Virus record (IMG/VR): IMGVR_UViG_3300025137_005412
Span: 32,001 to 96,000 of that record
Source: a virus
Reading direction: 5' to 3' (one strand)
DNA length: 64,000 nt
The position numbers and the translations under genes were made by a program. The notes under the pieces are model-generated. The model was given only the letters and a program-made list of their open reading frames with translations, did no database searches and was not told where the DNA came from. This document shows, piece after piece, positions 10,934 to 36,405 of this stretch. Positions within the stretch are counted from its first letter, which is position 1. Each line of letters opens with the position of its first letter.

Positions 10934-10955
10934 AAAAAACTAGTATAATACTAGT

Positions 10956-12561: not shown

Positions 12562-13207
12562 TATATTTTCAGATGAAGAAAGACAAGCTCTATTAGAGAT
12601 ATACTACTCACATAAAGAGTATGATACTGAAGCTATGAAGAAAGCACCAGTATGTGATCATACATTAGATATAGTACAGGACAGAATCAGGCAGCTCATA
12701 GGCACTGATTATGAATACGTTTCTGGTAATTACTATGAACATACTAAACCGTTTTATCCTCACACTGACTTCAGAAAAGAATGGGTAGAAAGTATTAATA
12801 TGGTAATACCATTAAAGAATAGAACAGAAAACTATAATGGTAAGCTTGTTATATTTGATCAGATGTGGGAAGATGATAGTCAGACATGGATGATGACACA
12901 TCCAACAACTCAGTTTACAGTAAATACAGCACTAAGCGGATGTCCATTTGATTATCCTATTACAAACAAAACAGGCGAGAAGATGGATCAAATGTTTTGG
13001 GAAACTCATCTTAAACAATTCCCTTCATGGTGTTGGAATGAATTATCAGGTCATACTTATAGATACGAAGAGAACAGCATAATAATATTCAATAATAAGA
13101 AAATACACTGCACTAATAATTTTAAAGGCAGTAAGACTGGTCTTACATTAAGATATAAGAAGAGACATACAAATCCATTATTTAAGGAGTATGCAAATGT
13201 TAGTTGA
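12539..13207 (+). CDS. Putative 2OG-Fe(II) oxygenase
   Basis: PHTD...IHCT...K.GLTLR. Confidence 0.6.
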   Translation: MQTTQLSSIFSDEERQALLEIYYSHKEYDTEAMKKAPVCDHTLDIVQDRIRQLIGTDYEYVSGNYYEHTKPFYPHTDFRKEWVESINMVIPLKNRTENYNGKLVIFDQMWEDDSQTWMMTHPTTQFTVNTALSGCPFDYPITNKTGEKMDQMFWETHLKQFPSWCWNELSGHTYRYEENSIIIFNNKKIHCTNNFKGSKTGLTLRYKKRHTNPLFKEYANVS

Positions 13208-13892
13208 TATACAAGGTGTTGGTACGGTAGGTATGGCAATGAGACATATCTTTAGGCATTGCTTTCATGAAAGTTTAACTGATGTAGATGCAGTGATCAT
13301 TACAAATCATGAAGATTACTTGTATGATGTACTTACTGATGTATTGAAATGGCATACAGGTTTAGTCATAATCAAATGTACTGTAAGACCTGATATATTA
13401 AAAAAGATTATGGGTCTACATGACAAGATATGTTATGTACCTGAATTTCTTAGAGAAAAGCATTCACTTACAGATGCTACATTACCAGAGTTCAGAATAT
13501 TTGGTGGTACCAAAGAAAATATTGCATTAGCAGAAAAAGTGTTTGCTGATTCACACTCACATGCACATAGAATATTCCACATGTCCGCAGAAGAAGCTGC
13601 GTTTGTCAAGTATAGCATTAACTCTTATCTTGCTCTTAAAGTAGGTTTCTTTAATGATCTATATGATAAGGCTAAAAAAGAAAATTTGAATTGGTATAAT
13701 ATTAGTCAAGCAATTATAGCAGATGAAAGAATTGGTTCATCACATTCAGAAGTACCTGGTCATGATGGTGAGTTTGGTTTTGGTGGTAAATGTTTACCTA
13801 AAGACTTAGAAGCTTTTATAGATTATACAAAGTCTGATTTGCTTAAAGAAGTAAGAAATAGTAATGAAGGCAGGAGAGCATTAAACAAATGA
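13191..13892 (+). CDS. Short UDP-glucose/GDP-mannose 6-dehydrogenase homolog
   Basis: GVGTVG, IKCTV, PEFLRE, KYSINSYLALKV, GFGGKCLPKD; lacks C-terminal domain. Confidence 0.85.
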   Translation: MQMLVDIQGVGTVGMAMRHIFRHCFHESLTDVDAVIITNHEDYLYDVLTDVLKWHTGLVIIKCTVRPDILKKIMGLHDKICYVPEFLREKHSLTDATLPEFRIFGGTKENIALAEKVFADSHSHAHRIFHMSAEEAAFVKYSINSYLALKVGFFNDLYDKAKKENLNWYNISQAIIADERIGSSHSEVPGHDGEFGFGGKCLPKDLEAFIDYTKSDLLKEVRNSNEGRRALNK

Positions 13893-14570: not shown

Positions 14571-14920
14571 GCTGGGAAGAAATGATGGATTGGTCAAGAC
14601 AATTGGCCGATAAAATTAAACAATCAGATGACAAAGATGTCAAGTCAATATTTCCTGTTGATCATGAGGATATCATACCTGCTTGGATGGTTGCAAAAAA
14701 CCTAGGTATTGGTATCCTTCCAGGTCATGCAGATTTGAATGCAAAGTATTTAGCATTTCATGTAGATAACAGTGTGTTCTCTGATATTGCATTTGTCAAT
14801 TACCATTTAGAAGGTGCAGATACACAGATCTTATCTGTTCCAAAGCATTTCGTTCTCAATGAAAGTTATATTGATGAAGAACCTAAGAAAACTTATCAGT
14901 ATCCATGGTATAATATCTAG
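14534..14920 (+). CDS. Degenerate phosphoribosyltransferase-like protein
   Basis: SWEE...LA.KI, IIPA.MVA..LG and C-terminal YPW resemble purine PRTases, but PRPP loop is absent. Confidence 0.35.
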   Translation: MAFRTNSSSTAVSWEEMMDWSRQLADKIKQSDDKDVKSIFPVDHEDIIPAWMVAKNLGIGILPGHADLNAKYLAFHVDNSVFSDIAFVNYHLEGADTQILSVPKHFVLNESYIDEEPKKTYQYPWYNI

Positions 14921-23080: not shown

Positions 23081-24328
23081 TTACCCGAGTATTGGTGGTA
23101 ATGGTAGAGAGGATTCGTTATCACTTGCCCTCTGGGGATGTTCGGCTAGTATTGGTTTAGCTCCCTCTATATAGGGTGGAGGTGGTGGATTCAATATGAT
23201 CTTCTTCGGTGGTTCTATACCCATAGATTGAAAGTTATTCGGTATCTGTTGTAGTGTATCATTTGAACCGGTAATAGCATGTCTCATTGCATTTCTTTCA
23301 TTCATTTCCTTCTCGAATTGTTGTCTCTGCTGCTCATCTGTTGGATATACTGTATTACCTCCCTGGTCGAATAGACCCATCCAAGGTATATGTATCCTTA
23401 CCGGACCGATAGGAGTATCAATATCGCATTCTAATACCGTGTCTTTACCCTTCGGACCGGCCTTGATCTGTTCGTGCTTCGCCTGTATTCGAAGCTGCAG
23501 TACATCTTTCGGATGCATAAGATCGGGGTAGATGATATTCTCCTGACCCGCCAGCTGTCTCTCGATACTCGCCCGGATATCATCCGGATTATCCTCATAG
23601 GCGATACCTCGGACCTCGGGAGTTATCTTCTTAATATCTACGAGCTCCTCATCATTCTCTATATGTGCCATCAGGTTCTCCCATGTTATCTGATGAAAGT
23701 TATCAAATCCAATGAGTCTCGGAGGTGACTTACCATCGAGTGGATTGACGTGATAGAACTCGGTATCGGGGAACTGTTTAATAATCCACTGATATCTTCT
23801 CTGCCAGTTACGAAATGTAGGTGCTCCGTTGATTACACCTTCCTTCTTCTTGGCATAGTGCTTCATACCCTCATAGAGGTTATTCATCAGGCCATTACTA
23901 TCGGGATTATTGATATCGGCATCGGACTTGATACCAAAGAAGTCATTACCGATGAGAAAGATCTTCTTATGTTCATGTACCTTACAGGCCACATAGGTGG
24001 CGGATGGTCCGGCTGCAAACTTCTCGGGTGTTGGTATCTTCTTGGCTCCGCTTCCAGGTTTAGGAAACCACGTATAGAACCAGTTCGATCTCGGCCAGTT
24101 AGGTGTAGTCTTCAATATAGTACGAGTCATAGGCTCATCAGATGCTACTAATACATGTGGTGCAAACTCTTCTCGATAGAACCAGTTGCAGGCATAGAGT
24201 ATTCCATACTCTTTAAGTGTCTTAATATCCTTATCTTTTCTTGTGATACCGTTACCAATTACCCATGCGTACTGACCGGTCGGTAGTGTCTTCTTACCGG
24301 TACCCTTAATCTTTGGAAGCTTCTTCAT
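23081..24328 (-). CDS. Glycosyltransferase-like protein (sialyltransferase/DUF115-like N-terminus), Pro-rich tail
   Basis: VIGNG.TR, YACN.FYRE.F.P..LVA.D, IFLIG.D. Confidence 0.5.
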   Translation of the reverse strand: MKKLPKIKGTGKKTLPTGQYAWVIGNGITRKDKDIKTLKEYGILYACNWFYREEFAPHVLVASDEPMTRTILKTTPNWPRSNWFYTWFPKPGSGAKKIPTPEKFAAGPSATYVACKVHEHKKIFLIGNDFFGIKSDADINNPDSNGLMNNLYEGMKHYAKKKEGVINGAPTFRNWQRRYQWIIKQFPDTEFYHVNPLDGKSPPRLIGFDNFHQITWENLMAHIENDEELVDIKKITPEVRGIAYEDNPDDIRASIERQLAGQENIIYPDLMHPKDVLQLRIQAKHEQIKAGPKGKDTVLECDIDTPIGPVRIHIPWMGLFDQGGNTVYPTDEQQRQQFEKEMNERNAMRHAITGSNDTLQQIPNNFQSMGIEPPKKIILNPPPPPYIEGAKPILAEHPQRASDNESSLPLPPILG

Positions 24329-25410
24329 ATATACCTCTTCATAAATTTGTTAAGACCCGCATCAACATGTAGAGACCTGTTCATGTTATGTTCTCGATCC
24401 TTATTAGTATTATACCATATATCCTGCCATTCTTTATCACTCAGGTGATATAAACGACTGATCTCCTCGTTCAACCTGTTAAGTCTATTAAGTGGATTAC
24501 GTTCGTTGTCGTATGAATGGTCTATATACCGATCAAAGAACTTCCATCCCTTCCTTCGTAGGTTGTTGATATGATGTTGCTGTGCCCAGTACAGAGAAAG
24601 GTTCCCTGATCTGAGAGCACGAAATGTCTTCTCACTTGCAAATGTAGTTAACGGTCCACCATTGACTCGTGTTTCCGATACGATCTCCAGTTGAAAGTTT
24701 GCTCGTGAATCATAGCTATCTACCATGGCACCATTCTCTCCCGCTATCAGGTCCTGTCCCTCATTAGTTATTCTATTCTTAATAGAACCCCAATTATCAA
24801 AGTGTTTCTTTAATGGTTCACTGATATGCGGTCTCTCGAGCTCGGTAAGTACATGTGGACATCTGATCTCCATCTGCATATTACTATTTACAAGTCTCTT
24901 TAAGAGTTCGATACGATATGTATAGTGTCTTCTCATCCAGAAGAACATACGATACTTCCTACTTACCTTCTGATCTCTTCGATTGTTAGATGGTTCAGGC
25001 TGTGACTGTGATAGATTACAATCAACGAACTTCTTCCAGTATGGAATATAGATCCAGTTCTTATCACAATTCTGAGTAAGTGGTCCTGAATTACAATGCC
25101 AGAAGTTTATGTTATCATAGTTCTTAAACTCATTCTTTACATCAAACCATTCAAGAAACCATGGTTCCATACCGACATTGACTATATAGACTACCTGATC
25201 ATTACCATGCTCATCATACATCTTATTCATATAATCACGAGCTACTTTATAGTCATTAAAGCCACCCATATGTTCAAAGTATATTACCTTATGATTCTTT
25301 GAGAGAGTAGCAAGATGTGGTTGAAAGCAGGATAGAGCTTTAGGTTTGAATGGGTACATCGATGTACCCATTTCTCTGATAAATGAGTTTGCTTGTATTA
25401 GTGGAAACAT
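24325..25410 (-). CDS. Putative glycosyltransferase (SEKT-motif, GT10-like)
   Basis: EIVSET...FASEKTFRAL...GWKFFD..IDHSYD. Confidence 0.5.
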   Translation of the reverse strand: MFPLIQANSFIREMGTSMYPFKPKALSCFQPHLATLSKNHKVIYFEHMGGFNDYKVARDYMNKMYDEHGNDQVVYIVNVGMEPWFLEWFDVKNEFKNYDNINFWHCNSGPLTQNCDKNWIYIPYWKKFVDCNLSQSQPEPSNNRRDQKVSRKYRMFFWMRRHYTYRIELLKRLVNSNMQMEIRCPHVLTELERPHISEPLKKHFDNWGSIKNRITNEGQDLIAGENGAMVDSYDSRANFQLEIVSETRVNGGPLTTFASEKTFRALRSGNLSLYWAQQHHINNLRRKGWKFFDRYIDHSYDNERNPLNRLNRLNEEISRLYHLSDKEWQDIWYNTNKDREHNMNRSLHVDAGLNKFMKRYI

Positions 25411-26573
25411 TGTTCGGTTCCATACTTTATAATCTTCTTAGTTCGAGGAATATCAAGATCGACATCATCTCCCCAAGGATCAACGAGTATTGAACCATCG
25501 GCAATGGAATCTATTATAAACTGTGAAGGACCACGGCTACAGAGATATACAGCCGGTTCACTCAGATACTTCTCATAATGAATCTTTGGTTGATTAAACA
25601 TATCTATCTGTGCCTCCATATCTTCAATCCATGCAGCGACTAGGAGAGAAGGAGAACCATCCGTGAGTTCAGATTCTGACTTAAAACCATTATCTAGAAA
25701 TACAATCGGTAGATCAAATGTCAAAAGATACTCGGACATCTTCTTAGCTTGAAAATCTCTTGCTTCCATGACCGATGAGAAGAGATCGTACTTAAGTTTA
25801 AGTTCCTCTGATAGAGACTTTAATGCTATATTATCTCGTGGATGACATGGACCACCGTCACCAAGACCAGGCTTCATGTATTTCTCACTGATAATTCTTT
25901 TCTTTGATTTGGCCAGAGCATTACATACCATGTTAGCATCTGTATGACCAATCTCCATTGCTACATCTTGAATCATATTGACAAAGGATATTTTCATAGA
26001 GATAAAAGTATTATAGAATACCTTTATACATTCAGCCTCCTCATATGAACCAGTTTCCCATCTCACTTTCGTAGTGATAATAGGTTTATAGAATTCTTTC
26101 AGTTCTTTAATATCTTCTTCATCACCACCAGCAATCATCATCTCAGGATTTAGAAAATCTTCCTTTACGGTACCCATTGCAATCAGATATGGATTGTATG
26201 CGAGTCTATAATTTTCAGGTATGTCGATCAATCTGTTTCTAAATGTGGTAGGTAATACAGTAGAGATTACAGTAACGAGTGCGTTGGGAGCGGCATAGTC
26301 ATTGAGATCTATGAGTACATCTTCAAGAGATGAGTAATCAAAATCCATTGCGGGTAAATTGTAAGTAGGTTTTTCACCACCATAGTTTTCATGATGTGGT
26401 GTAGGTACGGCAATAAAGATCATCTCAGCATCTTTACATACTTCAGCCATGTCAGTATTCATTTTTATATCATGAATATGAACATCATAGTATTCATTCA
26501 TTACATCAGCAACTGGTTGACCAAGTTTGCCTGCTCCGATAAATGCTACTTTCTTATTTTTTGCCACTGTCAA
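25398..26573 (-). CDS. UDP-glucose/GDP-mannose 6-dehydrogenase family
   Basis: GAGKLG, IAVPTPH, ISTV, YNPYLIAMG, KVFYNTFIS, GDGGPCHPRD. Confidence 0.9.
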   Translation of the reverse strand: MTVAKNKKVAFIGAGKLGQPVADVMNEYYDVHIHDIKMNTDMAEVCKDAEMIFIAVPTPHHENYGGEKPTYNLPAMDFDYSSLEDVLIDLNDYAAPNALVTVISTVLPTTFRNRLIDIPENYRLAYNPYLIAMGTVKEDFLNPEMMIAGGDEEDIKELKEFYKPIITTKVRWETGSYEEAECIKVFYNTFISMKISFVNMIQDVAMEIGHTDANMVCNALAKSKKRIISEKYMKPGLGDGGPCHPRDNIALKSLSEELKLKYDLFSSVMEARDFQAKKMSEYLLTFDLPIVFLDNGFKSESELTDGSPSLLVAAWIEDMEAQIDMFNQPKIHYEKYLSEPAVYLCSRGPSQFIIDSIADGSILVDPWGDDVDLDIPRTKKIIKYGTEQCFH

Positions 26574-26659: not shown

Positions 26660-27367
26660 TTATTTTACGAGTTTGAAGTGACGCTCGTATACATGAAGAT
26701 TCTGAACTTGCCATACTATCTGGCCAATCTTAACACTAAGATCTTGGGATAAACGTGAAAGAACTTCTTGCTGCCATGCATAATCATTACGATAGCCATA
26801 TATAACATCATTAGATCTCATTTGAACTACTGAATGAATGGAGTTATTACGAATATAATATGTCACAGCATTAGTACAGATGAAATCATTCTTGCCATTT
26901 TCTCGGTATTCTTTCCATATAGATGGACGATTGTATATCATAGCAGCACGTCTGGAATCTGGATTATCAAGAAGTTCTTCGACTACATGTTCATATTGAT
27001 TATGATATAGATCATCGAAGATTAACTTACCGTAATTTGAATTGATATTACCATAATGATCAGCAGACATTTGCCATGCTTTAGGTGGTAGTTTATCTTC
27101 AGGACCATAGATGTCATATATATTTGTAGAGGTTGAATCATACCATTCAATTTCAGCATCTATATACTTTTGATTAGGGATACCAAAGATCGCAGGTTCA
27201 TCGGCTACAAAAGAAGCACCAATTAATTCTATAGTCTTAGAACCAGATCGATCCTTGGTAAACTTTTTTTGATTCAGTTCACTAATAAAGTGAGATCTGA
27301 TATCAGAAACTTTAGGTGTTAGATCATTTTTCAAAGATCTTCGCGAGAATTCCAGTATTTCCGCCAT
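26660..27367 (-). CDS. 42: dCMP hydroxymethylase (gp42-like)
   Basis: NSNYG, DFICTNAVTYYIR, MRSNDVIYGYRNDYAWQ, LHVYERHF closely match T4 gp42, including the cytosine-specifying Asp. Confidence 0.88.
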   Translation of the reverse strand: MAEILEFSRRSLKNDLTPKVSDIRSHFISELNQKKFTKDRSGSKTIELIGASFVADEPAIFGIPNQKYIDAEIEWYDSTSTNIYDIYGPEDKLPPKAWQMSADHYGNINSNYGKLIFDDLYHNQYEHVVEELLDNPDSRRAAMIYNRPSIWKEYRENGKNDFICTNAVTYYIRNNSIHSVVQMRSNDVIYGYRNDYAWQQEVLSRLSQDLSVKIGQIVWQVQNLHVYERHFKLVK

Positions 27368-27746
27368 GGTCAGGTGCCTCCCAATTTGCTGGTTTAGTTA
27401 AGTCCGGTAATCCATAAGGATTAGGACGTGATTCTTTAATTCCAATTTCTTTATTTAAGTTTGCTTTAAGTACTTCTTGCCATGCTTTATTACCATCTAC
27501 TTTGAAAGCATCAAGTGTACCAGCAGCAAATACAATAAGATCAATAAGACCATCTACAATTTCTTTTGTATCACCATCATCAAGTGCTGCTTTAGTTTCA
27601 TCTAATTCTTCTTGACACATTTCTAATCTAAATGCTAGGTACTTACCAAGCATATCTTTATTCATTCTATCTACTACTACAGGTACCATATATTTCATAT
27701 GCATACCTTTCATATCTTCAAATATATCACTCATATCTTGCTCCAT
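27324..27746 (-). CDS. MazG-like all-alpha NTP pyrophosphohydrolase
   Basis: QEELDE...EIVDGLIDL...V.KAN..K...KP.NW..P. Confidence 0.8.
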   Translation of the reverse strand: MEQDMSDIFEDMKGMHMKYMVPVVVDRMNKDMLGKYLAFRLEMCQEELDETKAALDDGDTKEIVDGLIDLIVFAAGTLDAFKVDGNKAWQEVLKANLNKEIGIKESRPNPYGLPDLTKPANWEAPDHGGNTGILAKIFEK

Positions 27747-28041
27747 TAAAAATTGCTGAGAATATTAAAGGTTCTATATCTGTATTATACACTTTATGAA
27801 ACTTATTTGCTGGTACTGGAATAGTATCACCAGGTTTAACTGCAAATGTTTCTTCATCTATTTGCATAAGTCCATTACCTTTTGTAAATACATATACTTC
27901 TTCTTGTTGTTTATCACTGTGTGTATGACCATTTGTTTCACATCCAGGTTGTAAGCAAGTAATTGATGGAACTAATATCTTTAGTTCATCATTATCTAGT
28001 ACGTAGTACCTCTCGTCTTTCTTAGCTATTTTCCAGGTCAT
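27727..28041 (-). CDS. Cupin-domain protein
   Basis: GHTH...EEVYVF..G.G...GD...VP...FHKV.N. Confidence 0.85.
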   Translation of the reverse strand: MTWKIAKKDERYYVLDNDELKILVPSITCLQPGCETNGHTHSDKQQEEVYVFTKGNGLMQIDEETFAVKPGDTIPVPANKFHKVYNTDIEPLIFSAIFNGARYE

Positions 28042-28767: not shown

Positions 28768-29227
28768 GGTGCTCGCTGTGTATGTTTATTAATCTATTAA
28801 TATTATACTTTTTAATTCTAATTTTTTTCTGTACGAGATGATTCATCCATGATTTTTTATTTGTAAACTTATCTCCATAGAATATCTTTAAGAGTGTATC
28901 ATCACTGATACCTTTTCTATCGAATAATCTATCAAGATCAAATGTAGTTGGTAGTACTTCATCAGCAGTATCTCTCTTATAGAGTTCATATGATTGCGGA
29001 TGATAATCTTTAATGTATGATATAAAGTTTGCACTATAACCACAATTAAAGCAATGGCATACAAGACCTTGTTGTTTTGCATCTACCCAGAATCTTGCTT
29101 TACGAGTATTAGTAGCACTATCACCACATACTTGACATGACCAGTTCCATGAGTATTGAGTTTTCTTCTTATAGTTTCTTACTTCGTAAGTAAGACTGTC
29201 AGCAATTGAAATTAAGTTATGAAGCAT
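28739..29227 (-). CDS. DNA primase zinc-binding domain (gp61 N-terminus only)
   Basis: CQVCGDS..N.RKAR...HCFNCG; no TOPRIM domain. Confidence 0.75.
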   Translation of the reverse strand: MLHNLISIADSLTYEVRNYKKKTQYSWNWSCQVCGDSATNTRKARFWVDAKQQGLVCHCFNCGYSANFISYIKDYHPQSYELYKRDTADEVLPTTFDLDRLFDRKGISDDTLLKIFYGDKFTNKKSWMNHLVQKKIRIKKYNINRLINIHSEHHGKRISKNT

Positions 29228-29988
29228 TCTTGAATTTTATCTATTTGTCTAAGAGTTTCTTCGAACATGTTTGGTGTTAACATGTTTGGTCCATCAGAAG
29301 GTGCTACAGTAGGATTATCATGAACTTCCATAAAGAATCCATCTACACCAACGGCAGCTGCAGCTCTACATAATGGTTGAACGAATTGTCTTTTACCACC
29401 ACTGACTCCATCACCAGCACCAGGTTCTTGTACTGAATGTGTAGCATCGAATATAACTTTCATATTTGGATAATCTTTTTGAAGTACCTGTCTCATATAA
29501 CTTAAACCTCTCATGTCTACTACTAGATTATTATACCCGAAAGTTGTACCTCTTTCTGTAATCCATATAGGAGCATCAGGATCAGGTTTAGATAGTATAC
29601 CTTTAACTTCTTTATATGATAGGAATTGACCTTTCTTTATATTAACAGGTTTCCATGTAGAACATGCTTCTACAATAAGATCTGTTTGTCTGCAAAGAAA
29701 AGCTGGGATTTGGAATACATCTATAATGTCTTGAAGATATTCCACTTGATAGCACTCATGAACATCCGTCAAAAGTTTCATGTCTGGATTTTCATTCTTT
29801 AGAAACTCAAAGTCCTCAACGAATTGTTTTAATCCAACACCTCGTTTACCTTTAACTGAACTTCGGTTTGCCTTATCAAAAGAAGCTTTATAATAAAATT
29901 CACCACTTACAATCTCTTTGATAGCGTCAAACATTTTCTGTGAATGTTCAATACTTTCATGTTGACATGGTCCCGCAATTAAAATCAT
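29212..29988 (-). CDS. kdsA: KDO-8-phosphate synthase
   Basis: IAGPC, KASFDKANRSS, QIPAFLCRQTDL, KKGQF, ERG..FGYNNLVVDM, DATHSVQ, SDG. Confidence 0.95.
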   Translation of the reverse strand: MILIAGPCQHESIEHSQKMFDAIKEIVSGEFYYKASFDKANRSSVKGKRGVGLKQFVEDFEFLKNENPDMKLLTDVHECYQVEYLQDIIDVFQIPAFLCRQTDLIVEACSTWKPVNIKKGQFLSYKEVKGILSKPDPDAPIWITERGTTFGYNNLVVDMRGLSYMRQVLQKDYPNMKVIFDATHSVQEPGAGDGVSGGKRQFVQPLCRAAAAVGVDGFFMEVHDNPTVAPSDGPNMLTPNMFEETLRQIDKIQECFIT

Positions 29989-32038: not shown

Positions 32039-32161
32039 ATTATACTCATTTTATCAAATTTTTATACGTTTGTAAAACAGTTTGTTTCGTTTGGAATCAA
32101 CCACTTAGAAAAAAGGCTTTAGAAACAATCACTTATAGTTTCGTTTGGAATCAACTACTTA
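32039..32161 (-). promoter_or_regulatory. Promoter region with tandem IHF-consensus repeats
   Basis: GTTTCGTTTGGAATCAAC(C/T)ACTTA at 32084-32107 and 32138-32161; box at 32052; AGTATAAT on - strand at 32039-32046. Confidence 0.65.
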
Positions 32162-32617
32162 TGCGAAGACGTGTAAATTAATCCAGTCACAGGTCATAGC
32201 GGGCTTCTTTTCTCCCTCTATTTCAATAACTATATCTATTGTTGTTCTAAACTTATTACCTAGTTTCTTATATGATTTAAGAGTAAAGTGAGCTCTGATT
32301 TTCTGATCAGCTTTTACTGCTTGTCTAAATTTTAGATTCTCTACTCCAACATTAGTAGCAAAGACCTGACCAGCAAAAGGTTTAATAATCTCATAACTAA
32401 ATTTTGGTAGTAGGGAAACAATGAGAAATCCATGAGATATGATACCACCAAATGGTGTAGCCTTAGCATAGTTCTCATCAGTATGGATTGGTTGATCATC
32501 ACCAATCAATGCACCATATAATTGTATTAGTTCTCTATCAATGGTTTCCCATGATGAAGTTAACTTTACTCCAATATGTTCTTTATATTTTTTGTCAGCT
32601 GCATCAATGGTGTTCAA
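32159..32617 (-). CDS. MaoC-like (hot-dog) dehydratase
   Basis: GDDQPIHTD..YA..TPFGG.I.HG. Confidence 0.88.
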   Translation of the reverse strand: MNTIDAADKKYKEHIGVKLTSSWETIDRELIQLYGALIGDDQPIHTDENYAKATPFGGIISHGFLIVSLLPKFSYEIIKPFAGQVFATNVGVENLKFRQAVKADQKIRAHFTLKSYKKLGNKFRTTIDIVIEIEGEKKPAMTCDWINLHVFA

Positions 32618-32850
32618 AGTTTTTTCTCATCCAATTGTTTTTTGAATTGATCATATCCACCAATATTATTATCATCAACAAAGATCTGTGGAAATGTTCT
32701 TGCATTTGGTTGTAGTTCTAATAACTCTTCCATTGTAAAATCTTTATTCAACATTAGCTTCTCATAAGTATGTTCAGTTAATTTCTTTGCTTCTCTCTCA
32801 GCCATATCACAGTATGGACATGGAGTTTTACTATAAATTTTTATATGCAT
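32614..32850 (-). CDS. Glutaredoxin
   Basis: CPYC, RTFPQIF, IGGY. Confidence 0.92.
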   Translation of the reverse strand: MHIKIYSKTPCPYCDMAEREAKKLTEHTYEKLMLNKDFTMEELLELQPNARTFPQIFVDDNNIGGYDQFKKQLDEKKL

Positions 32851-32852
32851 GA

Positions 32853-33296
32853 TTAAGCCTGTAAATATGTTAGCATTGTCTTAGCATCAGAACATTCAAA
32901 TGGATCAGCATCTACTTCACATTCATTGCATTTACCTTCTTCAACAAACATCTTTACAACTTGACCGTCATGTAATAAAGATGAATAACGCCATGATCTT
33001 GAACCAAATCCTTTATTCTTCTTAGTCACTAACATGTTTAGTTTGTTTGTTAGGTCACCATTGCCATCGGCAATATATTTTACTTTAGTAATTTCTTGCT
33101 TTTCAAACCAAGCTTTCATTACGAATTCATCATTTACTGAGATACAATATACCTCATCAATACCACACTTTTTAATCTCGTCATATAGTTCTTCATAACC
33201 TGGTAAATGTTGTGTAGAACAAGTTGGTGTAAATGCACCAGGCAATCCAAAGATTACCACTTTCTTATTATCGAATAGCTCTTTAAACTGAGACAT
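32853..33296 (-). CDS. Peroxiredoxin (Prx5-like)
   Basis: LPGAFTPTCS..HLPGY, SVND.FVM.AW, RSWRY. Confidence 0.92.
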   Translation of the reverse strand: MSQFKELFDNKKVVIFGLPGAFTPTCSTQHLPGYEELYDEIKKCGIDEVYCISVNDEFVMKAWFEKQEITKVKYIADGNGDLTNKLNMLVTKKNKGFGSRSWRYSSLLHDGQVVKMFVEEGKCNECEVDADPFECSDAKTMLTYLQA

Positions 33297-33336
33297 ACTT
33301 TCTCCTTTACTTTAGTTTCTATAGGTATTATACTTA

Positions 33337-34665
33337 TTATGCGAAAAAACTTTCAAGATCAGAAGCTTTTTCTTTTTGATGTACAGCTTTAGTTTTACTT
33401 ACTATATCTGAATACACATCGATAGCATCACAGTGAGACTTCCAAAACTCAAAAGCTTTATGTCTTTCTTCATCTCTCTTAGAATGATTAGTACTTAACA
33501 TTGATAATGTATCAGCAACCGCTGTATACTCATGATTAATCAAAGCTACCTTATGAGCATCTGCACCATAATTTCTTTGTTTAAAATTATCTGTAAGGAA
33601 CACTGTACCACTATTTTCACATGCAATAACTGGATCACCAATCTTATTGTGAATAATATGAGCACCAAAATGTTCATGGAATATAGGAACTGTACCAGCA
33701 CCTAAACAATCTGCATGACAGTATTCTATATTTGCACCATATTGTTCTGGCTTGAGATGATATAGATCAGAACCAAACATAGACTTTGCCATTCTTAACA
33801 TCATATCATGGTGTTGATAGCCAGGATAAAGATAAGCACCTTTATTTAGTTCTTCTTCACCATATTCAAACTTACCAGTTTCATCATATTCTTTTTCAGG
33901 CCTAAACTTATTTACTACATTCCATCTTGTTGATGGATCCTTATCATTTTTATATAAGATACCTTTATAACCTATTGATGCTTCTAATCCTTCAAGTATT
34001 GTAATGAATCCTCTATCCATCATTTTTTCTTGATGAAAATCAATTAGTTGCTGTGGACCTTTCCATCCAGCAGATCTACCAACCCATCTAATAATCTTTT
34101 CTTGTTCTTCAATTGGTTGCCAATACTTTTCTTTACCTTCATCAAAGTTATAACCTACACCTGCAGTTGTAATAGGAACTGAAATGTTTTCTTTCTCACA
34201 CCATTTAGAAAATGGATTAGTTGTAGCATGAGTCATAATAACATCTAAACATTCTAATACTTCTTTAAGTTTAGCATTACGATGAATTGATTGAATATTA
34301 TGATCAACCTGAACAATGCTTTTCTTAACATTAATTTTTTTTAATAACTCTATGAAGTTGTCAACACATTGTTCAGGGTGATTTTTAGATGGAACAGAAA
34401 AGACAATCAAAGCTTCACACTCATTTATCTCATCAATGACCTCAGTACAAGTCATTAGATCTGGAAACTTCTTAGTTGATTTACTAATATCTGACCAGTC
34501 TGCTCCTCTAAAATAGTTTACATCAAACTCCATGGAGTTTTGTCTTGGCCATACTTTATCCATAGTGGCATAGACTTTTACACCCATTAGTTTTTGGAAT
34601 TCTACTACATTCTTTGTGACACCGCAACCTTCGACACCACGACCCATAAGTACTGCTACAGTCAT
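33337..34665 (-). CDS. DNA alpha-glucosyltransferase homolog
   Basis: MGRGVEGCGVTK matches T4 a-gt MARGLEGCGVTK; SVP, DH, GR...WKG, EY.H...GT.PIF. Confidence 0.82.
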   Translation of the reverse strand: MTVAVLMGRGVEGCGVTKNVVEFQKLMGVKVYATMDKVWPRQNSMEFDVNYFRGADWSDISKSTKKFPDLMTCTEVIDEINECEALIVFSVPSKNHPEQCVDNFIELLKKINVKKSIVQVDHNIQSIHRNAKLKEVLECLDVIMTHATTNPFSKWCEKENISVPITTAGVGYNFDEGKEKYWQPIEEQEKIIRWVGRSAGWKGPQQLIDFHQEKMMDRGFITILEGLEASIGYKGILYKNDKDPSTRWNVVNKFRPEKEYDETGKFEYGEEELNKGAYLYPGYQHHDMMLRMAKSMFGSDLYHLKPEQYGANIEYCHADCLGAGTVPIFHEHFGAHIIHNKIGDPVIACENSGTVFLTDNFKQRNYGADAHKVALINHEYTAVADTLSMLSTNHSKRDEERHKAFEFWKSHCDAIDVYSDIVSKTKAVHQKEKASDLESFFA

Positions 34666-35543
34666 TTGTTTTTACCTCTCTCTAAATTATACTGATCCAT
34701 ACACATATCTTCTAAACTCTTTGTTAGTGTAATCTTTTCTGATAATGTATCTACAGTTGAAGATTCAGCATCGCCTTCACGTCTACCACTTATCTTTATT
34801 GCTACACCTTTACCAGTGACTTTTCTCATTGTTTCAATAACTTCATTTACTGAATAACCTTCATTAGAACCTAAACATTCGTATGGTGTATTTGATGGTC
34901 CATCATCAACAGCATTACATATTGCATTTGCTAGGTCAACCACATGTACATAATCTCGTATGCATGTACCGTCTTTAGTATTATAATCAGTACCATATAC
35001 TTCCATCCAATCTCGTTTACCGCATGCAACCTCAGCAGCTACCCTTATTAAATGAGTTGATGGACCTATTTGTTTGTGTACACCATCTGAACCTGATACA
35101 TTGAAGAATCTAAATATTGTATATCCACCAGCTTTTTCTTTAATAACATCTTCAGCAGCTACTTTTGATTTGGCATAAGGTGATGCCATTTCCCATGCGG
35201 CTGATGTAGATGCAAATAAGATATGAGCCTTTGGAAACATTTCACATACACTTAATGTACCCATTACATTACTCACATAATAATCTGATGGTCTCTTCAT
35301 ACTTTCAGGTACTACTGACAATCCACCTAAATGAACTACTGCTTCATAGTCCGGATATAATTGAGATTTTCTATAGTCTCTTACATTATTATTATAATAA
35401 TTCTTTAAGTATTGGTTTACATCATTCTTATCTTCTCCATGAATATTAATATCCATGCCATCAATAATATGACCACGTTCATTTAGTATCTTACATACAT
35501 GTGAACCAATATATCCATTACAACCTGTGACTAAGACTCGCAT
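34662..35543 (-). CDS. galE: UDP-glucose 4-epimerase-like SDR
   Basis: TGCNGYIGSH, VPES, YAKSK, RFFNV.G, DGTCIRDYVHV.DLA, RREGD. Confidence 0.88.
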   Translation of the reverse strand: MRVLVTGCNGYIGSHVCKILNERGHIIDGMDINIHGEDKNDVNQYLKNYYNNNVRDYRKSQLYPDYEAVVHLGGLSVVPESMKRPSDYYVSNVMGTLSVCEMFPKAHILFASTSAAWEMASPYAKSKVAAEDVIKEKAGGYTIFRFFNVSGSDGVHKQIGPSTHLIRVAAEVACGKRDWMEVYGTDYNTKDGTCIRDYVHVVDLANAICNAVDDGPSNTPYECLGSNEGYSVNEVIETMRKVTGKGVAIKISGRREGDAESSTVDTLSEKITLTKSLEDMCMDQYNLERGKNK

Positions 35544-35938
35544 ACTCTTCTCCTTAAATCTGACGATGAGAATCTATGTTCTCGTTTATTAAAATACAAA
35601 GATATACCACGCTTCTTACATACATCTTTACCAGTAAAATCTTTTTCTCTATACTCATCACCAAGAATTCTAACATCAATAGTATATAGTTCTAATATAT
35701 CTTCTAAATCTTTTTCAGTAGCATAAGGAATAATCTCATCAACATACTTTACTGCTTTGAGTTGTGTATATCTTTCTACTAAAGTTTGAATGGGTGAGTT
35801 CTTTTCTTTTCTATCAATCGATGGATCCACTTGCAAAGCACATATAAGATAATCACATTGTGACTTTGCATCTCTTAACATTTGTACATGACCTGCATGT
35901 AGCAAATCAAATGATGAACAGCTGAATCCAATCTTCAT
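35531..35938 (-). CDS. Glycerol-3-phosphate cytidylyltransferase-like (TagD family)
   Basis: FDLLHAGH, ER..QL.AVKYVDE, R.H.FSSS.LR. Confidence 0.85.
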   Translation of the reverse strand: MKIGFSCSSFDLLHAGHVQMLRDAKSQCDYLICALQVDPSIDRKEKNSPIQTLVERYTQLKAVKYVDEIIPYATEKDLEDILELYTIDVRILGDEYREKDFTGKDVCKKRGISLYFNKREHRFSSSDLRRRVCES

Positions 35939-35957
35939 AGTAGTATTATACCCCGAA

Positions 35958-35985
35958 ATGGGAGGAATATTTCTACTCCTCCCAT
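35958..35985 (-). terminator. Intrinsic terminator-like hairpin after the HTH gene
   Basis: ATGGGAGGA...TCCTCCCAT 9-bp stem. Confidence 0.6.
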
Positions 35986-36007: not shown

Positions 36008-36271
36008 TTATACTAAGCCTTGCGCAATTGCTTGGTAGCCCGCTGCTACAACAGCTCGTGTTGGAGTACCTAAACGATACCTTAATGCACGAAGACTGCT
36101 AGATTTAGCAGGTCTGTTGCCGTAGATAGCATAACCTTTATTTCTAAGGTTTGCAACCACTGCAGTTGGGTTAGCCATGTTAAATCTGTCTCTCATTTGA
36201 GCAACAGTTAACTCAGCACCATTTGATAGAGCATCAATTACTTTGCTCTCTTGGGATTTTGTTTTAGCCAT
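36008..36271 (-). CDS. Small winged-HTH DNA-binding protein
   Basis: Likely start 36271 after RBS AAGGAG; L..G.ELT..Q...RF...NP.A.V..LR..GY; YRLGTP. Confidence 0.7.
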   Translation of the reverse strand: MAKTKSQESKVIDALSNGAELTVAQMRDRFNMANPTAVVANLRNKGYAIYGNRPAKSSSLRALRYRLGTPTRAVVAAGYQAIAQGLV

Positions 36272-36405
36272 TTGTATTTTCTCCTTACTTAGTCTAAAAA
36301 ATATGTTAATTAATTTTAACATCACGAATAGATTATACTCTTTATCTCGATTTTTTTCATTTTCTTTTAGAGTGAGTACCCGCACCCCCGCGGGTACACA
36401 CGGGT

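Follow-up and report, generated by a model that had tools for sequence, protein, structure and literature searches.

Which sugar does a phage place on its DNA when its DNA glycosyltransferase is encoded together with enzymes that could make the sugar donor? The question arises from a 64,000-nt stretch of DNA, here called the window (bases 32001–96000 of the 152-kb IMG/VR virus record IMGVR_UViG_3300025137_005412, which is ~85% complete), where three minus-strand genes, hereafter the trio, encode a cytidylyltransferase-like nucleotidyltransferase, a GalE-like epimerase and a homologue of the T4 alpha-glucosyltransferase a-gt (AGT family). We favour, with somewhat better than even confidence, the reading that the trio supplies the sugar donor and the transferase for a T4-type hypermodification of cytosine, with an alpha-galactose- or alpha-N-acetylgalactosamine-type hydroxymethylcytosine (hmC) as product.

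Three coupled genes and an hmC pathway

The trio comprises open reading frames (ORFs) at 35531–35938 (nucleotidyltransferase, P0001, 135 aa), 34662–35543 (epimerase, P0002, 293 aa) and 33337–34665 (transferase, P0003, 442 aa), all on the minus strand. The first and second genes overlap by 13 nt (35531–35543) and the second and third by 4 nt (ATGA, 34662–34665), and Shine-Dalgarno sequences precede the second gene (AAGGAG) and the third (GAGAGG); the three genes are translationally coupled. A sequence-only reading of this DNA had described three overlapping genes, and their exact coordinates, overlaps and families were all borne out by our analysis.

The identity of P0003 as a retaining GT-B glycosyltransferase of the AGT family was supported by Pfam, by structure search and by an AlphaFold2 model. 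It passed the gathering threshold of the AGT family (PF11440; 101.5 bits, cut-off 25) and matched the alpha-glucosyltransferase family phrog_2888 at 3.8e-58; among solved structures, a sequence search with phmmer returned T4 AGT alone (1xv5, 5.5e-34). Fold comparison of the model (pLDDT 86, pTM 0.83) with the PDB placed T4 AGT chains at all of ranks 1–9 (E 1e-29 to 1e-26, TM 0.69–0.87), and the next fold family followed at 3e-10, at least 16 orders of magnitude weaker. The best matches among isolates were T-even-type phages, at 27–28% identity.

Passages of PMC6024577 that cite Lariviere 2005 name the contacts of T4 a-gt: the beta-phosphate is bound by G15 and R204, the ribose by E311 and the glucose by H114, H116 and H140. 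We mapped the T4 residues by alignment on 83 environmental homologues and found G15, D115, H116, H140, R204, K209 and E306 (T4 numbering) to be invariant in 83/83, with R204, H116 and H140 corresponding to R197, H122 and H146 of P0003. The E311 position is a conservative Asp in P0003 (Asp319) and the window's clade, and the H114 position is Val in 82 of the 83 sequences (Val120 in P0003). This comparison with the T4 donor pocket, which the sequence-only reading had pointed to, thus shows the phosphate contacts (G15, R204), the ribose contact (E311, as Asp) and two glucose contacts kept, and the third glucose histidine lost. The catalytic and nucleotide-binding residues of P0003 appear intact, with one sugar contact systematically changed; on these residues AGT family membership holds and glucose specificity is in doubt.

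P0002 was assigned as a GalE-like short-chain dehydrogenase/reductase (SDR) 4-epimerase from its profile matches, structure search and residues. It scored 101 bits against the Epimerase family (PF01370), its best model by far was galE (TIGR01179), and its solved relatives at E ≤ 1e-20 were UDP-glucose/galactose 4-epimerases in 32 of 32 cases (best 2c20, 1e-36). The NAD motif GxxGxxG is present as GCNGYIG; in the E. coli GalE triad S124 is replaced by Thr and Y149 and K153 are invariant, and N179, R231, R292 and D295 of the E. coli enzyme are retained. The bulky gatekeeper of GalE is missing: where the E. coli enzyme has Tyr299, P0002 and four orthologues (5/5 phage proteins) have Ser. In E. 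coli Y299C and in P. aeruginosa WbpP (S306), a small residue there reportedly goes with acceptance of N-acetylated substrates, and P0002 may therefore accept UDP-GlcNAc/GalNAc. Judged by its residues, P0002 looks active, UDP-linked and not limited to Glc/Gal.

P0001 is an HxGH cytidylyltransferase-like nucleotidyltransferase that passed two superfamily cut-offs (PF01467 CTP_transf_like, 55.8 bits vs 21; TIGR00125, 52 vs 27.7 bits) and carries the motifs HAGH at residues 14–17 (HxGH), KxK and (R/K)YVDE. Its best NCBIfam match was the RfaE domain II model (rfaE_dom_II, TIGR02199) at 73.4 bits, below the 181.5 cut-off, and its PHROG is annotated as rfaE-like as well; it scored 65.8 bits against TagD (TIGR01518), below the 165.4 cut-off. 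The best solved relatives were human ECT (3elb, ethanolamine-phosphate) and the glycerol-3-phosphate cytidylyltransferase TagD (1coz), both of which matched better than the solved HldC (5x9q). The protein is 71–76% identical in lineages with AGT at only 45–54% identity. In relatives, whose loci compared with the window carry L-numbers (L002, L004 and so on), the nucleotidyltransferase adjoins a eukaryote-type phosphomannomutase (PMM; L009, L017, L045, L046, L065), and a small cupin resembling phosphomannose and phosphoglucose isomerases (PMI/PGI-like) lies directly upstream of it in L031, L055 and L090–L095. The cultured Acinetobacter phage Ab1-TPeters (110 kb; L002:4637-6201) has, in this order, a cupin, a nucleotidyltransferase (60% identical) and a PMM-like gene, a cassette that could offer a workable system for studying what the nucleotidyltransferase does. 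Since a cupin isomerase, a mutase and a nucleotidyltransferase would make a complete route from ketose phosphate to nucleoside diphosphate (NDP)-sugar, gene context favours a sugar-1-phosphate rather than glycerol phosphate as substrate; the cupin and PMM neighbours are compatible with the RfaE domain II family and do not prove it.

The base to be modified is indicated by a gp42-type dCMP hydroxymethylase, a thymidylate-synthase homologue of 235 aa encoded ~6 kb downstream of the trio on the same strand (26660–27367). Its product is 51% identical to T4 gp42 and, like T4 gp42, has Asp at E. coli ThyA positions 169 and 177, the pair expected for cytosine and hmC; we predict from this that the phage makes hmC, not 5-hydroxycytosine (5hoC). 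Asn169 is the criterion for a 5hoC-making thymidylate-synthase homologue (PMC13326640), and the homologue of Shigella phage JK36 (Mosigvirus), taken here as the 5hoC-synthase type, has Asn169. On Asp169 and the identity of 51% to gp42 against ~25% to JK36 we rejected 5hoC as the base.

Conservation of the linkage

The environmental AGT family was large, with 253 clusters at E ≤ 1e-5 and 219 IMG/VR stretches. We surveyed 80 loci by profile search, with AGT homologues at 43–94% identity; IMG/VR loci out of one contig family are non-independent. Pairing with an SDR was evaluated in the 54 loci whose sequence reaches 1 kb or more to either side of AGT, and the presence of gp42 and the nucleotidyltransferase in the 24 whose sequence upstream of AGT is 6 kb or longer. 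In 52/54 evaluable loci the AGT homologue had an SDR gene no more than 1.3 kb away, and such a gene was detected in 77 of all 80 loci. Three SDR types, mutually just 22–24% identical, accounted for the 52 loci: a GalE type upstream of AGT (12) and two downstream types, one of 251 aa (28) and one of 318 aa (12), the latter scoring best as an ADP-heptose 6-epimerase. A gp42-like gene was present in 21 of the 24 loci, and the nucleotidyltransferase was found within 1.3 kb in all 12 evaluable GalE-type loci, with the gene order rearranged.

Nine close IMG/VR loci retain the trio, five of them in the window's order. Other arrangements were PMM, cytidylyltransferase (CT), gp42-like, dCMP deaminase, GalE, AGT and UvsX (L009, L010), in which the gp42 orthologue of L009 (52% identical) stands between the nucleotidyltransferase and epimerase genes, and GalE, CT, AGT and PMI-cupin (L011, L012). 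The nucleotidyltransferase, GalE-type SDR and AGT occur together in four sub-lineages, over AGT identities from 94% down to 52%, in the orders CT-GalE-AGT, GalE-CT-AGT and CT-TS-dcd-GalE-AGT (TS, thymidylate-synthase homologue). A quick maximum-likelihood tree of AGT homologues set the T4-type enzymes apart by a very long branch and resolved the GalE-partner clade (that of the window), the 318-type clade and the 251-type clade. GalE-type subclades were also nested inside the 251-type clade, with an upstream CT-GalE pair substituting for the downstream SDR, an arrangement that points to cassette exchange.

Longer contigs share a layout that runs from DNA polymerase through MazG, (PMM) CT (dehydrogenase), gp42 and dCMP deaminase to AGT, and from there through SDR (dehydrogenase) and a C5-methyltransferase-like gene to UvsX, in some cases with KdsA-KdsB, a cupin and gp41 after it; the module thus belongs to the replication/nucleotide-metabolism block. 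The linkage asked after in the sequence-only reading is kept, both for the trio in GalE-type loci and for the AGT-SDR pair, and the survey supports the trio as a conserved functional unit tied to the hmC pathway. The same reading had stated that T4 a-gt needs no donor-synthesis genes, which agrees with the T-even isolates RB18 and Metamorpho, whose a-gt is flanked by gp55 and gp47 and has no sugar genes in its vicinity.

The sugar donor

The modification could proceed in four steps. The gp42-type hydroxymethylase and a MazG/PRA-PH-type NTP pyrophosphatase (27324–27746, minus strand; PF01503), a candidate dCTPase whose gene lies next to the module in relatives, would replace dC by hmC; the gene identities are clear, and the chemistry would be that of their families. 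The AGT homologue would then glycosylate hmC in DNA at its hydroxymethyl group, using an NDP-sugar and with retention, as its family, fold and residues suggest. The GalE-like enzyme would turn host UDP-hexose or UDP-HexNAc (N-acetylhexosamine) into the 4-epimer that serves as the real donor, a step proposed because AGT and SDR are almost universally paired, the epimerase's catalytic residues are intact and its gatekeeper is a small Ser; the product would be alpha-galactosyl- or alpha-N-acetylgalactosaminyl-type hmC, not glucosyl-hmC. In the fourth and weakest step, proposed from gene neighbourhoods, the HxGH nucleotidyltransferase would activate a sugar-1-phosphate, and the resulting NDP-sugar would either enter the epimerase step, giving independence from host nucleotide-sugar pools, or serve as a second donor for further decoration. 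By analogy with T4, the modification would be expected to shield the DNA from nucleases that recognise cytosine or hmC.

P0003 shares with T4 a-gt (PF11440; 1xv5, 1y6f) the Pfam family, the GT-B fold, the G15/R204 contacts, two of three glucose histidines, the equivalents of D115, K209 and E306, and the link to a gp42-type hydroxymethylase. It differs in being only 24–28% identical across a very long branch, in the Val and Asp at H114 and E311, in an extra LExFF tail and in its pairing with an SDR, whereas T-even a-gt stands alone in its gp55–gp47 position and uses host UDP-glucose. The SDR pairing, the H114 change and the absence of donor genes beside T-even a-gt together make a donor other than host UDP-glucose the better reading, and the sugar on hmC is most likely phage-made and probably not glucose, as far as these sequences indicate. 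The sequence-only reading had proposed a non-standard donor, either a galactose-type epimer or a CDP-activated sugar or polyol. A donor other than host UDP-glucose emerges better supported, but a CDP-activated polyol is disfavoured: P0001 fell short of the TagD and RfaE-II cut-offs, its recurring neighbours are cupin and PMM, and Vibrio phage phiKT1024 carries it as a lone copy.

Several observations weigh against an epimerised donor made by the trio as a unit. P0002 scored 206.2 bits against galE, short of the equivalog cut-off of 262.3, and has a 15-aa loop deletion relative to E. coli GalE; as a 4-epimerase works in both directions, its gene does not by itself identify the epimer used. H114V is common to all three SDR-partner clades, we found no donor-pocket residue that goes with SDR type once phylogeny is accounted for, and the pocket residues of the nested GalE-type subclade follow its 251-type relatives. 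The wider clade can do without the nucleotidyltransferase (present in 13/24 loci), which usually adjoins gp42 and the cupin, not AGT. A search of phiKT1024, whose nucleotidyltransferase is 76% identical to P0001, turned up no homologue of AGT or of gp42, which argues against a strict tie to hmC glycosylation; cyanophage P-TIM68, which is not known to have hmC, carries a member 31% identical to P0001 with epimerases and a glycosyltransferase in a heptose-type cluster. Finally, the epimerase has UDP-type contacts whereas the nucleotidyltransferase's families make CDP- or ADP-linked products, so the two enzymes may not share one line.

Of the alternatives, the one that survives best, although unlikely, is plain T4-like alpha-glucosylation, in which the donor is UDP-glucose and the epimerase and nucleotidyltransferase top up its pool in a streamlined marine host that is short of nucleotide sugars. 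The retained T4 nucleotide contacts and two of three glucose-contact histidines count for it; the epimerase reaction could run in the required direction, being reversible, and the isomerase-mutase-nucleotidyltransferase set of relatives resembles a pathway for making the donor de novo out of central metabolites. An epimerase is nevertheless a poor route to UDP-glucose, which is normally the precursor of UDP-galactose. The swapping of three unrelated SDR types round one transferase clade fits donor diversification better, and H114 is replaced throughout the environmental clade.

A heptose or mannose route, in which an RfaE-II-like enzyme activates heptose- or mannose-1-phosphate, the SDR epimerises the product and AGT adds it to hmC, is slightly less likely again. 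It would account for rfaE_dom_II as the best NCBIfam match of the nucleotidyltransferase, for the agreeing PHROG annotation, for the PMI-like cupin and PMM genes that flank it in relatives and in Ab1-TPeters, and for the heptose-epimerase-like score of the 318-aa SDR; cytidylyltransferase-dependent heptose-5-hydroxymethylcytosine (5hmC) has been published, and P-TIM68 has a GmhA-kinase-CT-epimerase-GT cluster (GT, glycosyltransferase). The window's own SDR, however, is clearly GalE-like (206 bits, against 50 for the heptose epimerase model) with UDP-type contacts, HldC is a weaker match to P0001 than TagD or ECT, and neither PMM nor GmhA was found in the ~85%-complete 152-kb record.

Less probable still is the view that this is not a DNA system, with the epimerase, nucleotidyltransferase, dehydrogenase and KdsA being lipopolysaccharide (LPS) or capsule auxiliary metabolic genes (AMGs) and either the AGT adjacency being incidental or the AGT homologue acting on something other than DNA. 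Similar nucleotidyltransferase and epimerase genes do occur in phages where gp42 and AGT were not found or are not known, and a pelagimyophage survey assigns rfaE, UDP-glucose dehydrogenase and glycosyltransferase genes to the O-chain (PMC7029224). That survey describes marine T4-like phages, which carry curli genes too, with 'LPS-related AMGs' much like those seen here (rfaE-like, UDP-glucose dehydrogenase, glycosyltransferases) and, in one group, 'two thymidylate synthases plus dCMP deaminase' (PMC7029224). There the genes are read as host O-chain modification, whereas the linkage to gp42 and AGT here points to DNA. The frequency of SDR (52/54) and gp42 (21/24) neighbours and the translational coupling do not look incidental, and the genes sit in a replication block with DNA polymerase, UvsX, gp41 and dCMP deaminase, not in a tail-fibre island. 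P0003 retains the T4 catalytic and nucleotide contacts, and to our knowledge PF11440 is known solely from DNA glucosyltransferases.

Equally improbable is CDP-alcohol decoration, in which CDP-glycerol, CDP-ethanolamine or a similar compound is made and the phospho-alcohol is put on the sugar or base: the closest solved enzymes to P0001 are ethanolamine-phosphate and glycerol-3-phosphate cytidylyltransferases and it has the HxGH, KxK and (R/K)YVDE motifs, but the TagD equivalog cut-off was missed widely (66 vs 165 bits), no LicD-, TagF- or EptA-kind phosphotransferase was detected near the trio, and the recurring cupin and PMM neighbours indicate a sugar phosphate.

A galactose- or N-acetylgalactosamine-type hmC made in this way would join systems in which phage-made donors for DNA glycosylation are already established; the AGT-family version is what is new. 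In a metavirome study, subclass II pairs of a glycosyltransferase and an epimerase give epimerase-dependent hexose, HexNAc and hexuronic acid on 5hmC, a cytidylyltransferase is needed for heptose-5hmC, and Kdo-5hmC was obtained too; the epimerase-paired transferases there are GT-A, the GT-B ones are beta-GT-like, and the AGT family lay outside the study (bioRxiv 10.1101/2023.12.21.572611). The subclass II pairs resemble the window in that a DNA glycosyltransferase directly adjoins a sugar epimerase (with a 4-nt overlap here), but they use GT-A enzymes and post-replicative 5hmC made by a C5-methyltransferase and a TET-like dioxygenase, whereas the window has an AGT-family GT-B enzyme and hmC by the gp42 nucleotide route; no TET-like gene was present among the genes scanned around the trio. 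The contig 53 pathway of that study (HAD/APH, cytidylyltransferase and beta-GT-like GT-B, giving heptose-5hmC) likewise has a cytidylyltransferase-family donor step for a DNA GT-B enzyme, and differs in the beta-GT-like family of that enzyme and in a kinase/phosphatase partner that is absent in the window. Given these epimerase- and cytidylyltransferase-dependent 5hmC sugars, the sequence-only reading's suggestion of a possibly undescribed hypermodified cytosine was too strong.

A second group of precedents makes arabinosyl-5hoC (RB69, DLP3) and galactosyl-5hoC (Rhizobium phage RL38J1) (PMC13326640). These too are T4-like or large myoviruses in which a thymidylate-synthase homologue and DNA glycosyltransferases are accompanied by the phage's own genes for NDP-sugar synthesis; unlike the window, with its Asp169 hmC type and AGT family, they have Asn169 for 5hoC and GT4-like transferases, and their donor genes are arabinose-5-phosphate isomerase, kinase/uridylyltransferase and phosphatase, or UDP-Galp mutase. 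A survey of alpha-glucosyltransferase homologues covered sequenced isolates only, nearly all T-even phages (PMC13216743), and the MetaGPA paper (PMC8670742) does not mention the AGT, epimerase or nucleotidyltransferase families. Our literature search found no paper that brings together alpha-glucosyltransferase, epimerase, cytidylyltransferase and phage.

A broader proposition, to which we would give a little less than an even chance, is that T4-like phages of a very large uncultured clade, marine and freshwater, put non-glucose sugars on hmC by means of AGT enzymes, with the donor set by swappable SDR cassettes (GalE type with nucleotidyltransferase; 251-aa type; heptose-epimerase-like type with dehydrogenase). 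The pelagimyophage-like 'LPS auxiliary metabolic genes' would then be DNA hypermodification genes, and the sugar-hmC of the window's CT-GalE-AGT set would be chemically new for this enzyme family. The family is abundant in aquatic metagenomes and nearly always wired to a sugar-modifying enzyme, and the locus prompts a re-reading of published pelagimyophage annotations. If the chemistry is confirmed, a gene set of abundant ocean phages would count as 'DNA armour' instead of 'host envelope remodelling', 5hmC labelling and sequencing chemistry would gain AGT-family enzymes of new donor specificity, and virome assemblies and restriction- or nanopore-based analyses would have to reckon with fully glycosylated cytosines.

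Expression signals, neighbouring genes and the phage

The trio had been placed under one RGTATAAT promoter, of which the motif itself stood up: the window has 30 copies against 11.4 ± 3.4 expected (0/100 shuffles reach 30), mainly in sense orientation ahead of genes, and the copy GGTATAAT, a -10-like box at 35945–35952 on the minus strand that ends 6 nt short of the ATG of the first gene, is kept in L004, L005 and L007. The claim that this box alone drives the trio is weakened on several counts. With so short a spacing, a transcript starting there would be leaderless. A sigma-70 scan did not call the box because a -35 element is absent; promoter-like sites in the region were at chance level in that scan (17 vs 19.1). 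A better promoter match at 36332–36360, which drives a small upstream ORF of 87 aa, could read through into the trio. A second copy, AGTATAAT, lies at 34686–34693 (minus strand) within the epimerase 3' end, 21 nt ahead of the AGT start; it overlaps conserved Q-Y-N codons and so may be a coding by-product of uncertain function. A single promoter for the trio is plausible, not established.

An extended motif, RGTATAAT(A/T)(C/T)TA, occurs at 1886–1893, 10942–10949, 14907–14914 and 35945–35952. These four copies end 6–9 nt before the ATG of the gp41 helicase, two other genes and the trio's first gene, a spacing that suggests leaderless early transcripts in this phage. A further RGTATAAT copy at 33327–33334 precedes the gene following the trio, and no terminator was found after the trio. 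Directly upstream of the trio, the 87-aa ORF (36008–36271, minus strand) has its own AAGGAG and ends before a hairpin, GGGAGGA-N10-TCCTCCC, read from the sequence at 35960–35983 (minus strand). The hairpin's stem is retained with compensatory changes in L004, L005 and L007, and its position between the ORF and the trio makes a partial terminator possible.

Peroxiredoxin, glutaredoxin and MaoC-like dehydratase genes stand directly after the trio (32159–33296, minus strand), and their homologues follow it in the same order in L004–L007. Farther on, also on the minus strand, the window encodes a small PGI/PMI-like cupin (27727–28041; Cupin_2 1e-11, GPI 5e-5, MannoseP_isomer 2e-3) and an NDP-sugar 6-dehydrogenase of the UDP-Glc/GDP-Man family (25398–26573; PF00984, PF03721; TIGR03026 146 bits). 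In relatives, a short paralogue type of this dehydrogenase adjoins either the AGT-SDR pair or the nucleotidyltransferase. The 273-aa forms that flank the AGT-SDR pair match the N-terminal and central parts of the dehydrogenase profiles alone; a second short NDP-sugar-dehydrogenase-like gene of the window (13191–13892, plus strand, 233 aa) is 34% identical to them. The dehydrogenase is followed by two ORFs of 415 and 361 aa (23081–25410, minus strand) that are GC-richer (0.39–0.43) and kept in L024 and L025. These are candidates for further transferases; a protein-atlas look-up gave weak leads (GT10-like 0.82, MptE/Maf-like 0.89), which we left unused.

A KDO-8-phosphate synthase (KdsA) is encoded at 29212–29988 (minus strand; 310 bits vs an NCBIfam equivalog cut-off of 242), and KdsA and KdsB lie side by side near UvsX or gp41 in L017 and L090–L094. 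Most relatives have, after the AGT-SDR pair, a ~396-aa C5-cytosine-methyltransferase-like gene with a weak PF00145/dcm match (L017:9030-10220, L019:9999-11198 and most of L028–L098). Searching the 152-kb record with tblastn found no PMM, KdsB or C5-methyltransferase-like gene, an absence that, at ~85% completeness, is not proof that the phage lacks them.

The gp41 helicase is 47–51% identical to those of cyanomyophages and 46% identical to that of Pelagibacter phage HTVC008M, and from these identities the phage appears to belong to an uncultured marine myovirus lineage related to Kyanoviridae (cyanophage-/pelagimyophage-like). The window's clade has no close cultured relative, and a megablast of the trio region against 50,697 phage records gave zero matches. 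By its gp41, HTVC008M is no closer than the cyanophages, and a search of that phage detected no homologue of AGT or of gp42.

In P-TIM68 (L104, 168912–173051), the record's annotation gives a carbohydrate kinase, an epimerase, a CT-like gene, a 'cysteine dioxygenase', a phosphoheptose isomerase, an epimerase and a glucosyltransferase. The 'cysteine dioxygenase' is probably a cupin, and the cluster looks like an NDP-heptose pathway plus a transferase.

The AGT homologue of the window ends in the tail DLESFFA (33340–33360, minus strand). Most of the environmental AGT tails compared end in (G/T/S)LE(E/D/A)FF(A/V/G) after a variable, disordered linker of low pLDDT, and the LExFF tail is absent from T4-type a-gt; by resemblance alone, it might be likened to the clamp-binding tails of T4-type replication proteins.

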